Sequence record: MT129652.1
Source of the DNA: Escherichia phage MN01
Strand: one strand, 5' to 3'
DNA: 64,000 nucleotides
Position 1 is the first letter of the stretch. Each line of letters begins with the position of its first letter. The position numbers and the translations under genes were made by a program. The notes under the pieces are model-generated. The model had not been told where the DNA came from, made no database searches, and saw only the letters and a list, made by a program, of their open reading frames with translations. Positions 23,283 to 24,737 of the stretch are shown one piece after another.

Positions 23283-23615
23283 ATGAACCTCAAGACTTAT
23301 AACGAGTTTTTAGCTGAATCCGCCATCAATGAGACCAAATCAATTGATGATAGTGAAGGCTCTCTGAAATTTGGTTTAACCAAAAATGCAGATGGTGTTT
23401 TCTTTCAGATTGGTAATGAACGTTTTCAAACGTCCAAATATTCCAAAGCTGCAGTTGAAGCTGTCCTGAAATCTGGTGGCAAGTGGAAAGGCAAAGAAGG
23501 TACTAAAGAAATTGGTATCGCTGTTGACGGCGGTATGGCTTATTTTAAAATTGGCGATGAACAATTTATTATGTCTGCTCGCGGACGTAAAGAACTGGCA
23601 AAACTTTATAAATAA
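23283..23615 (+). CDS. internal-protein-like protein with capsid-targeting N-terminus (ipI locus)
   Basis: N-terminus MNLKTYNEFLAE resembles the T4 internal-protein capsid targeting sequence MKTYQEFIAE; first gene after 57B. Confidence 0.65.
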   Translation: MNLKTYNEFLAESAINETKSIDDSEGSLKFGLTKNADGVFFQIGNERFQTSKYSKAAVEAVLKSGGKWKGKEGTKEIGIAVDGGMAYFKIGDEQFIMSARGRKELAKLYK

Positions 23616-23623
23616 GGTTTCTT

Positions 23624-23896
23624 ATGAAAACTTTCAATGAATTTTTCAACGAGTCACAACTGAATGAAGAAGTAAAAATTAGTAAAGCAGTCAAAGCTAT
23701 GATTGACAATATCAATCACCTGTATAGCATTGACTTAACTGACCATATAACAATTGGTAACAAACGCAACTTTTTCGCGTTTGACATTTCAGAACTTGAC
23801 CAGAACCAAATTAATAACATTGAGCGTTTTGCCAATGACAAGGGTCTTCGCCATGAGACGGCTGGTTATAAAAAATATGCAATTTATCTAAAATAG
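23624..23896 (+). CDS. internal-protein-like protein (CTS-bearing)
   Basis: N-terminus MKTFNEFFNE; tandem position in the ipI locus. Confidence 0.6.
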   Translation: MKTFNEFFNESQLNEEVKISKAVKAMIDNINHLYSIDLTDHITIGNKRNFFAFDISELDQNQINNIERFANDKGLRHETAGYKKYAIYLK

Positions 23897-23904
23897 GATT
23901 TCAA

Positions 23905-24147
23905 ATGAAAACTTATCAAACATTTATAACAGAATCTTCCCATGGCATGGAAGTTAAACTTGGTCAAGCCCTTGCTGAAGCAGAGCGCCTGTTTGCACGT
24001 ATCAAAGAACTTGCTGATTCAGTAGATGCATCATCTTTTAAAGGCGACCAGGGTAAAGTTAAAGCTCTCCTCGCTCTTTGTTCAGACGCCGGTGAAATTG
24101 CTAAGAACGGCACCAAGATGAAAAAACGTCTGGAAGACTTAAAATAA
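23905..24147 (+). CDS. internal-protein-like protein (CTS-bearing)
   Basis: N-terminus MKTYQTFITE. Confidence 0.6.
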   Translation: MKTYQTFITESSHGMEVKLGQALAEAERLFARIKELADSVDASSFKGDQGKVKALLALCSDAGEIAKNGTKMKKRLEDLK

Positions 24148-24148
24148 A

Positions 24149-24178
24149 GTATACGCGATGGGATAACTGCAGTATAAT
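24149..24178 (+). promoter_or_regulatory. sigma70-type early promoter (repeated cassette copy)
   Basis: GTATAC -35-like, about 18 nt spacer, TATAAT; followed by conserved leader TATCCCATCAACTACTGGAGG and ATG at 24204. Confidence 0.5.
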
Positions 24179-24203
24179 TATCCCATCAACTACTGGAGGC
24201 AAC

Positions 24204-24458
24204 ATGAAAACATATCAAGAATTTATTAACGAAGCCGCAGATGCAAAAGTTGAGTTTGCTTATGTTGGTTCCCCGCGGGGTAGTTTTTCTAATGAGGAAT
24301 TGCGCCGTTCACTAGACAACTTTATGCAGTTAAGTGCTGAAGTATCGCATGATGGTCGCTATGACATCGTTACCATTAAAGGTTCTGAAGACCTTATCAA
24401 AAAGTGGCACAAGCAGAAAGATGTTGAGATGCGTTACTATCGTATCCCTAAAAAATAA
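24204..24458 (+). CDS. internal-protein-like protein (CTS-bearing)
   Basis: N-terminus MKTYQEFINEA; own promoter cassette. Confidence 0.6.
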   Translation: MKTYQEFINEAADAKVEFAYVGSPRGSFSNEELRRSLDNFMQLSAEVSHDGRYDIVTIKGSEDLIKKWHKQKDVEMRYYRIPKK

Positions 24459-24487
24459 GTGTACTTTTAAATGGGATAGTGTATAAT
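24459..24487 (+). promoter_or_regulatory. sigma70-type early promoter (repeated cassette copy)
   Basis: GTGTAC, 17 nt spacer, TATAAT; same leader as the copy at 24149. Confidence 0.5.
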
Positions 24488-24515
24488 TATCCCGTCAACT
24501 ACTGAGGGTCAAAAA

Positions 24516-24737
24516 ATGAAAACGTATCAAGAATTTATTAACGAAGCTAAAATGCATGACGAATTGCCGATTCAATCTAAAACTTTTGATGGTACACTGA
24601 AGGATTTTAAAAAGTTACCAAATGATAAATTGGCAAAACTTACAGGTTCTGTATCTGAAACAGGTGGTAAGGTTACTTTCTCTGCCCGTGGTATTGTCAA
24701 CCTTAAAAAACTTTTGAAAGCCGTTGGTGCTGAATAA
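24516..24737 (+). CDS. internal-protein-like protein (CTS-bearing)
   Basis: N-terminus MKTYQEFINEA. Confidence 0.6.
   Translation: MKTYQEFINEAKMHDELPIQSKTFDGTLKDFKKLPNDKLAKLTGSVSETGGKVTFSARGIVNLKKLLKAVGAE

Follow-up and report, generated by a model that had tools for sequence, protein, structure and literature searches.

More than 30 variants of the internal proteins (IPs) of T4-like phages are known, which are encapsidated and injected (Arbiol et al., PMC2839356), and the same reading of these proteins is given in Rao and Black 2010 (PMC3012670), Arbiol 2010 (PMC2839356) and Silas 2025 (PMC12373910). As reported by Arbiol et al. (PMC2839356), Repoila et al. 1994 described two polymorphic IP loci with conserved leaders and promoter/stem-loop cassettes. 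The product of T4 ipI, IPI*, is packaged and injected (PMC3012670). T4 Ip1, Ip2 and Ip3 are inhibitors of GmrSD, a modification-dependent type IV restriction family, each acting on a different enzyme of it, and both Ip loci have been proposed to encode inhibitors of GmrSD variants (Silas et al., PMC12373910). Here, an array of five tandem IP-type genes, which we name ipA to ipE, is described in Escherichia phage MN01 (MT129652.1), of which a stretch of 64,000 nucleotides (hereafter the window) was analysed.

The window comes from a Gaprivervirus-type T4 relative (Tevenvirinae). Its 57B-trna.4 interval contains five tandem open reading frames (ORFs) on the + strand, at 23283-24737, of 110, 90, 80, 84 and 73 codons (Table 1). 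An earlier note on this DNA had placed five consecutive small genes after 57B, where T4 has ipI, and the ORFs were indeed found there; the T4 slot holds ipI alone. We read the array as what is probably IP locus 1 (57B to trna.4) of this phage, expanded to five cassettes that specify packaged, injected anti-restriction proteins. T4 and other T-even IP loci (Repoila et al. 1994; Comeau et al. 2007; Black laboratory) share with the window the slots 57B-trna.4 and e/denV, a leader of the MKTYQEFIxE type and, as regards four of the five array genes, the gp21 motif, and the T4 IPs are likewise small, mostly basic, with mutually unrelated bodies and the same promoter/stem-loop cassettes. The array differs from T4 in having five genes instead of one and in that no body is related to IPI, IPII or IPIII.

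Each array gene belongs to a PHROG family of its own (ipA 3966, ipB 7673, ipC 3499, ipD 8111, ipE 8765). The label of four of the five families is internal head or virion protein, among them that of ipB (phrog_7673, internal head protein, E 1.7e-56); ipA (phrog_3966) is on record solely as a hypothetical protein or, once, as 'profilin'. The matches of ipC to phrog_3499 and of ipD to phrog_8111 have E-values of 2.4e-41 and 1.6e-15. Compared with Yersinia phage vB_YenM_P8 (P8), synonymous and non-synonymous differences number 3/1 in ipA, 5/0 in ipC, 11/6 in ipD and 8/0 in a further gene at 26885. As the differences are mostly synonymous, the substitution pattern indicates that these ORFs are real genes under purifying selection.

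Over its full length the array region has an identity of 96.9% with P8 and of 96.4% with Escherichia phage DK-13, both of which contain all five genes in unchanged order, and it matches the Gapriverviruses RZ, VR26, VR25, VR20 and SP18 in pieces. No record is identical to the window's genome, the best reaching ~95% over 24 kb. Homologues of the window's genes are annotated as ip5, ip6, ip9 or 'internal head protein' in VR26, VR25, VR20, SP18, RZ, DK-13 and P8. In particular, four of the five array genes are called internal head or virion proteins in the P8 record, VR26 names the ipB homologue ip9, the ipC homologue ip5 and an ipD-family gene ip6, and the ipE protein has a match of 100% identity in RZ, where it is entered as a 'putative internal head protein'. 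The array is already known: arrays of this type, with their layout and presumed role, were described 30 years ago and the exact array is in GenBank, and the present case adds candidates and no new concept.

Leaders and predicted cleavage context

The window was translated in six frames and searched for leaders with a loose pattern, M.{0,5}T[YF].[ET]F[ILFV], with 50 shuffles as control. Eight matches were found, all on the + strand and all at ORF starts, against 0.04 expected from the shuffles. Besides the five array genes they comprise 26873/26885, 37027 and 37842/37854. Both the variants of the T4 capsid targeting sequence (CTS) that the earlier note had seen at the five N-termini and the additional CTS-like genes that it listed at 26885, 37027 (as IPII-like) and 37854 are thereby recovered. 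The note had also suggested alignment with T4 IPI, IPII and IPIII; in a MAFFT alignment with these proteins, conservation is confined to the leader.

A review that summarises Mullaney and Black (PMC9026906) states that IPIII needs no more than its first 10 residues to be packaged, targeting being the task of residues 4 and 7 and processing that of residues 8 and 10, and that gp21 cleaves after the Glu of L/I-x-E. In all five array leaders position 4 is Y or F, position 7 is F and position 10 is E, the ipA leader being offset by two additional N-terminal residues (MNL-KTY). In four of the five, positions 8-10 read (L/I)-x-E and the next residue is small (with a slash for the predicted cut: ipA LAE/S, ipC ITE/S, ipD INE/A, ipE INE/A); the fifth, ipB, has F-N-E. 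P8, the closest relative, encodes the gp21 protease (Peptidase_S77, E 5e-102), the gp22 scaffold (T4_CASP) and gp67 (GP67), and by synteny with P8 the gp21, gp22 and gp67 genes of the window's phage are expected a short way upstream of position 1, no search for them having been made within the window. The sequence therefore fits the reading of the array products as injected proteins: the targeting residues 4 and 7 are kept in five of five and the processing residues 8 and 10 together in four of five, in a polymorphic IP locus, with gp21 and scaffold encoded in P8.

Indirect support for the cut site comes from ipC. In one related locus (L008) the ipC homologue has the same body joined to a long IPI-type leader, MKTFKEFAAKTTITE/SSHGMEV, where the window has MKTYQTFITE/SSHGMEV. 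The short and the long leader thus meet the ipC-family body exactly at the predicted cut, ITE/SSHG.

In several ip genes an upstream in-frame ATG adds 'ME.KM' before the leader (in the window at 26873 and 37842, and in the related loci L008, L013 and L031). This ATG overlaps the Shine-Dalgarno region (ATGGA) and accounts for the different start sites given to ip genes in different records.

Cassettes and breakpoints

A cassette of one plan stands before each of ipA, ipD and ipE: a T4-type early promoter, GT(G/A)TAC, 17-18 nt and TAT(A/T)AT, with a stem-loop over the -10 and a Shine-Dalgarno. The earlier note had counted two members with a promoter cassette of their own; the cassettes hold up, and their number is three. 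Over 24 nt the ipE cassette is 96% identical to that of ipD, which was also scored as a terminator-like hairpin on the - strand. ipB and ipC have no cassette of their own and follow the preceding gene after gaps of 8 nt, so that ipA-ipB-ipC make up a single module. T4 ipI and T4 trna.4 have cassettes of the same design: GTTTAC-N17-TACTAT, the stem lying across the -10.

The cassettes resemble the promoter-early stem-loop (PeSL) cassettes and the analogous elements linked to IP genes (Arbiol 2010, PMC2839356; Comeau 2014, PMC4122927) in combining an intergenic early promoter, a stem-loop over the -10 and a Shine-Dalgarno, in being repeated genome-wide and in lying at breakpoints. They differ from the PeSLs of RB49 in having a T4-type GT(G/T)TAC -35 and weak AT-rich stems, whereas RB49 has a near-perfect sigma-70 consensus with G/C tracts. 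The cassette core ATCCCATCAACTACTG has exact copies at 43873 and 56063 and a copy with three mismatches at 33247, and there are seven matches against 0.7 expected. Since the core recurs in the same promoter context elsewhere, the cassette is a genome-wide early-promoter unit and not IP-specific. The whole block of early promoter and 5' untranslated region of ipD and ipE, GTGTAC-N17-GTATnATTATCCCATCAACTACTGAGG-ATG, was also seen before other small genes (33247-33262, 43873-43888, 56063-56078).

Gene content of the interval varies widely. In 30 related loci the 57B-trna.4 interval spans 269-1667 bp and holds, from the ORF list, one to five ORFs with a CTS-like start; the maximum of five is found in the window, P8 and VR20. 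Compared with the window, ipC is replaced by a gene of another family in VR25 and VR20, with breaks at 23912 (8 nt into ipC) and 24141 (at the next cassette), and VR26, which is without ipE, breaks at 24250 (just beyond the ipD leader) and 24445. Homology with L008 begins at the ITE codons. In L010 and L013 an ipE-like gene precedes an ipB-like gene, opposite to the window order, and the ipG family (Table 1) and the ipA family are found in either IP locus, depending on the phage. The gene-content breaks between phages fall at a start codon, leader or cassette, which supports the modular acquisition that the earlier note had proposed. The array is probably assembled and remodelled by recombination inside the conserved stretch that runs from promoter and stem-loop through the ribosome-binding site to the leader, whereby whole genes are swapped, inserted, deleted and reordered.

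Fate and targets of the mature proteins

By analogy with T4, the first 10-12 residues of the array pre-proteins would be the CTS and would bind the prohead scaffolding core. The prohead protease gp21 would then cut after the Glu of (L/I)-x-E and leave mature proteins of 6.8-10.7 kDa, four of the five basic (predicted isoelectric point, pI, of 8.8-9.8; ipB, 6.8). These would remain with the packaged DNA and be ejected alongside it into the next host, where their most likely action would be stoichiometric inhibition of first-response nucleases; the likeliest targets, on analogy with T4 Ip1, Ip2 and Ip3, would be variants of the GmrSD family. The sigma-70-type early promoters before ipA, ipD and ipE would supply fresh protein early in infection.

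The bodies behind the leaders are mutually unrelated. All-against-all BLASTP of the eight proteins without leaders gave no significant pair (best E 0.013), and hhalign between family profiles gave a probability of at most 1.1%; at sequence and profile level the bodies do 'diverge completely', as had been claimed. Clustering of the leader-bearing ORFs from the 30 related loci together with database homologues gave at least 15 unrelated body families. The IP proteins had no meaningful match in Pfam, NCBIfam, PADLOC or PDB sequences. The ipD family has only 3 clusters among 5.8 billion proteins, and ipD itself is a diverged member of the family that holds VR26 ip6 (35/70 identical to VR26 Ip6). 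The MAFFT alignment showed a weak pattern, G-x-x-hydrophobic-S/T-x-x-G...L-x-K, that prompted the idea of a hidden common ancestry of the IP bodies; this idea was dropped after the null results of BLASTP and hhalign.

The earlier note had taken the array products for anti-defence proteins that are targeted to the capsid, trimmed by a protease and injected. This view is supported: it is the standard one of such proteins and the sequence fits it. That each member has a different host system as its target, as was further suggested, is more than the data can bear, the three solved cases all being inhibitors of GmrSD variants. Several points weigh against the view as a whole. None of the five bodies resembles IPI*, Ip2 or Ip3 in sequence or fold, and ip4-10 of T4-like phages gave no reproducible inhibition of eight active GmrSD systems (PMC12373910, Supplementary Fig. 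9). A literature search for virion proteomics of Gaprivervirus internal proteins found no paper. ipA carries two additional N-terminal residues. The processing site of ipB, FNE/S, has F at P3 instead of the canonical L/I; the ipB leader is 5/10 identical to that of a homologue (L012) whose body is 92% identical; and targeting position 7 of ipB is L in VR26, VR25 and VR20. Finally, scanning with the late-promoter consensus TATAAATA found no well-placed late promoter before the array. The only nearby copy (23607-23614) is formed by the last ipA codons (TAT AAA TAA), 10 nt 5' of the ipB ATG, and is at chance level; in the window as a whole the consensus is not enriched (7 found, 6 expected). Synthesis of the T4 IPs begins early and goes on late.

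The F-N-E site, the low leader identity and the L at position 7 in relatives indicate that the ipB leader is drifting, and packaging or trimming is, on these sequence features, least certain for ipB among the five. One or more members, ipB first, might then be early cytoplasmic proteins without working targeting or processing, the leader being a relic. The sigma-70-type early cassettes that drive the array would suit such a role, as would the F-N-E leader of ipB drifting beside a conserved body; moreover, IPIII, which is required on ECOR17, functions in the cytoplasm without its leader when supplied from a plasmid (Srikant et al., bioRxiv 10.1101/2022.04.14.488369). However, ipB of the window keeps F7 and E10, a leader is present in every ipB-family member found, and an early cassette of this kind also precedes T4 ipI, the product of which, IPI*, is packaged and injected (PMC3012670). 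We regard a relic leader as very unlikely.

The result with ip4-10 (PMC12373910) also bears on the targets. The five proteins could be aimed at defences other than GmrSD, a different system each, which would agree with the mutually unrelated array bodies and with the adjoining anti-CBASS gene, a sign that the region gathers varied counter-defence functions. This is possible, if somewhat unlikely: each of the three solved cases is an inhibitor of GmrSD, an injected protein is of most use against a nuclease that attacks DNA on entry, and GmrSD is extremely diverse, only 15 representative systems from the 20 commonest enterobacterial clusters having been tested (PMC12373910). Inhibition of GmrSD-family variants would still be the likeliest role.

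A different role is suggested for ipA by its predicted structure. Of the five models, that of ipA has a predicted local distance difference test (pLDDT) score of 75 and the other four 54-64. ipA contains an internal duplication, and its model has two beta-beta-beta-beta-alpha repeats in one domain, for which the best Foldseek match was PURA repeats I-II. On this model, which is of moderate confidence, ipA is predicted to have a Whirly/PUR-like fold. Searches of ipA against the Pfam PUR and Whirly families gave nothing at E<=1, and a PDB profile search likewise gave nothing relevant; with Whirly, PUR and MRP proteins ipA has no detectable sequence similarity, it is far smaller than Whirly or MRP proteins, and the likeness is that of a predicted model alone. 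In a search for relatives of ipA outside T4-like phages, the family came to 6 clusters among 1.84 billion representative proteins. Four of the five sequences retrieved open with a CTS-type leader; the fifth, P0030 (196 amino acids, E 3.6e-06), is repetitive and without one. In public records an ipA homologue of phage EAWsc9 (GenBank PQ341120.1, 146553-146882) is labelled 'profilin', at odds with the Whirly/PUR-like prediction, and homologues are otherwise called 'hypothetical protein'.

Some members, ipA above all, might on this basis be head proteins that associate with DNA in general and serve to condense, neutralise or shield it, instead of being specific inhibitors; ipA would bind nucleic acid by its Whirly/PUR-like domain and enter the host on the DNA. 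We consider this unlikely. Besides the moderate confidence of the model and the lack of a sequence-level tie to the PUR or Whirly families, the same type of fold is found in SsgA-like proteins and ErpC, for which no role with nucleic acids is known, and a housekeeping role in DNA packing would not predict a gene that is found in only 55 phage records and moves between loci. A nucleic-acid-binding role of ipA is a lead and not a finding.

Other leader-bearing genes and flanking features

The gene at 26885, which we name ipF, lies between the rnaD homologue and a terminator, at the position of T4 rnaC, and its leader was aligned with that of T4 IPI (MKTFKEFTSTTTPVSTITE/A). No family was found for it in PHROG, Pfam or NCBIfam. 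Its distribution is confined to 15 phage records, with identities of 99% or more throughout, and it is a 'hypothetical protein' wherever annotated. It is plausibly an unannotated internal protein. The homologue of T4 rnaD (species 2 RNA; 26645-26764) is 88% identical, and rnaC is absent, being replaced between rnaD and the shared terminator (26765-27336) by ~100 nt and the 26885 gene. The only tRNA genes present are tRNA-Met (CAT) and tRNA-Arg (TCT), which are adjacent (26241-26393); T4 has eight in the counterpart region. An Rfam scan of 22-39 kb gave nothing beyond these two tRNAs.

The second IP locus is polymorphic too. In the window (37027-38153) it reads e, IPII orthologue, denV and ipG; in P8 (L034, 7618-8926) it reads e, denV and one internal head protein, with no IPII there. 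Being 94% identical to T4 IPII, the 37027 product probably shares the GmrSD target of Ip2. Members of the ipG family lie in the 57B-trna.4 locus in four related loci (L023, L024, L025 and L030).

The left flank of the array consists of gene 1 (deoxynucleoside monophosphate kinase), 57A and 57B. The 57B homologue is, by its Pfam match, Acb1, a phosphodiesterase directed against the cyclic-oligonucleotide-based antiphage signalling system (CBASS); the label 'RNA ligase' persists for it in several public records. On the right, the trna.4 homologue encodes a small hydrophobic membrane protein of 61 amino acids. It is called a 'prohead core protein' in P8, which is a probable mis-annotation, and many other P8 names nearby look unreliable.

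Table 1. Genes, cassettes and flanking features of the IP loci in the window (aa, amino acids; a slash marks the predicted cut; fold, folding energy with its z score).
Feature	Coordinates	Strand	Size, leader or sequence	Context, match or predicted product
57B homologue	22763-23218	+		Left boundary of IP locus, conserved; Pfam Acb1, E 1.2e-59; position as T4 57B
ipA cassette	23219-23258	+	TGTACA-N17-TATTAT; stem GTGTAGG...CCTACAC across -10	Fold -14.8 kcal/mol, z -2.65
ipA	23283-23615	+	110 aa; leader MNLKTYNEFLAE	Predicted mature 98 aa, pI 9.3
ipB	23624-23896	+	90 aa; leader MKTFNEFFNE	Predicted mature 80 aa, pI 6.8
ipC	23905-24147	+	80 aa; leader MKTYQTFITE	Predicted mature 70 aa, pI 8.8
ipD cassette	24149-24188	+	GTATAC...TATAAT; stem GATGGGATAA...TTATCCCATC	Fold -13.4 kcal/mol, z -2.08
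ipD	24204-24458	+	84 aa; leader MKTYQEFINE	Predicted mature 74 aa, pI 9.0
ipE cassette	24459-24495	+	GTGTAC-N17-TATAAT	Exact pattern match; fold -13.0 kcal/mol, z -1.74
ipE	24516-24737	+	73 aa; leader MKTYQEFINE	Predicted mature 63 aa, pI 9.8
Stem-loop	24748-24772	+	GGTCTAG...CTAGACC	Upstream of trna.4; promoter part degenerate; z -0.85, weak
trna.4 homologue	24796-24981	+		Right boundary of IP locus, conserved; phrog_1692; position as in T4 and VR26
Late-promoter consensus	26847-26854	+	TATAAATA	31 nt 5' of 26885 start codon; argument from position only (window count at chance)
ipF	26885-27268	+	127 aa; long IPI-type leader MLTYAEFLNRNTITE/S	Predicted mature 112 aa, pI 10.1
Intrinsic-terminator-like hairpin	27307-27336	+	AGCCCC...GGGGCT and T run	Closes ipF unit; homologous to stretch 3' of T4 rnaC
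IPII orthologue	37027-37329	+		Second IP locus, between e and denV; 94/100 identical to T4 IPII; phrog_7857
ipG	37854-38153	+	99 aa; leader MKTYQEFITE	Second IP locus, after denV; phrog_2667, E 9.7e-43

A bolder proposal is that ipA is an injected nucleic-acid binder with a duplicated Whirly/PUR-like domain and that the 26885 gene represents a new IP family with a long IPI-type leader and a late promoter and terminator of its own, inserted at a third site, that of rnaC in T4; we put forward the two together only tentatively, and consider the pair rather unlikely. If true, ipA would not plug a nuclease but would shield or tag the incoming phage DNA, or have host nucleic acids as its substrate. 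The leads that are new here are modest: the predicted fold of ipA, the drifting ipB leader and the 26885 candidate, along with the third cassette, the genome-wide occurrence of the cassette and the breakpoints at leader and cassette boundaries. Targets are known for only three IPs (T4 Ip1, Ip2 and Ip3), so that further families are candidate inhibitors of uncharacterised restriction variants. Injected IPs are the earliest counter-defence of a T4-like phage, and they help to set host range, which is relevant to the choice of therapeutic phages.

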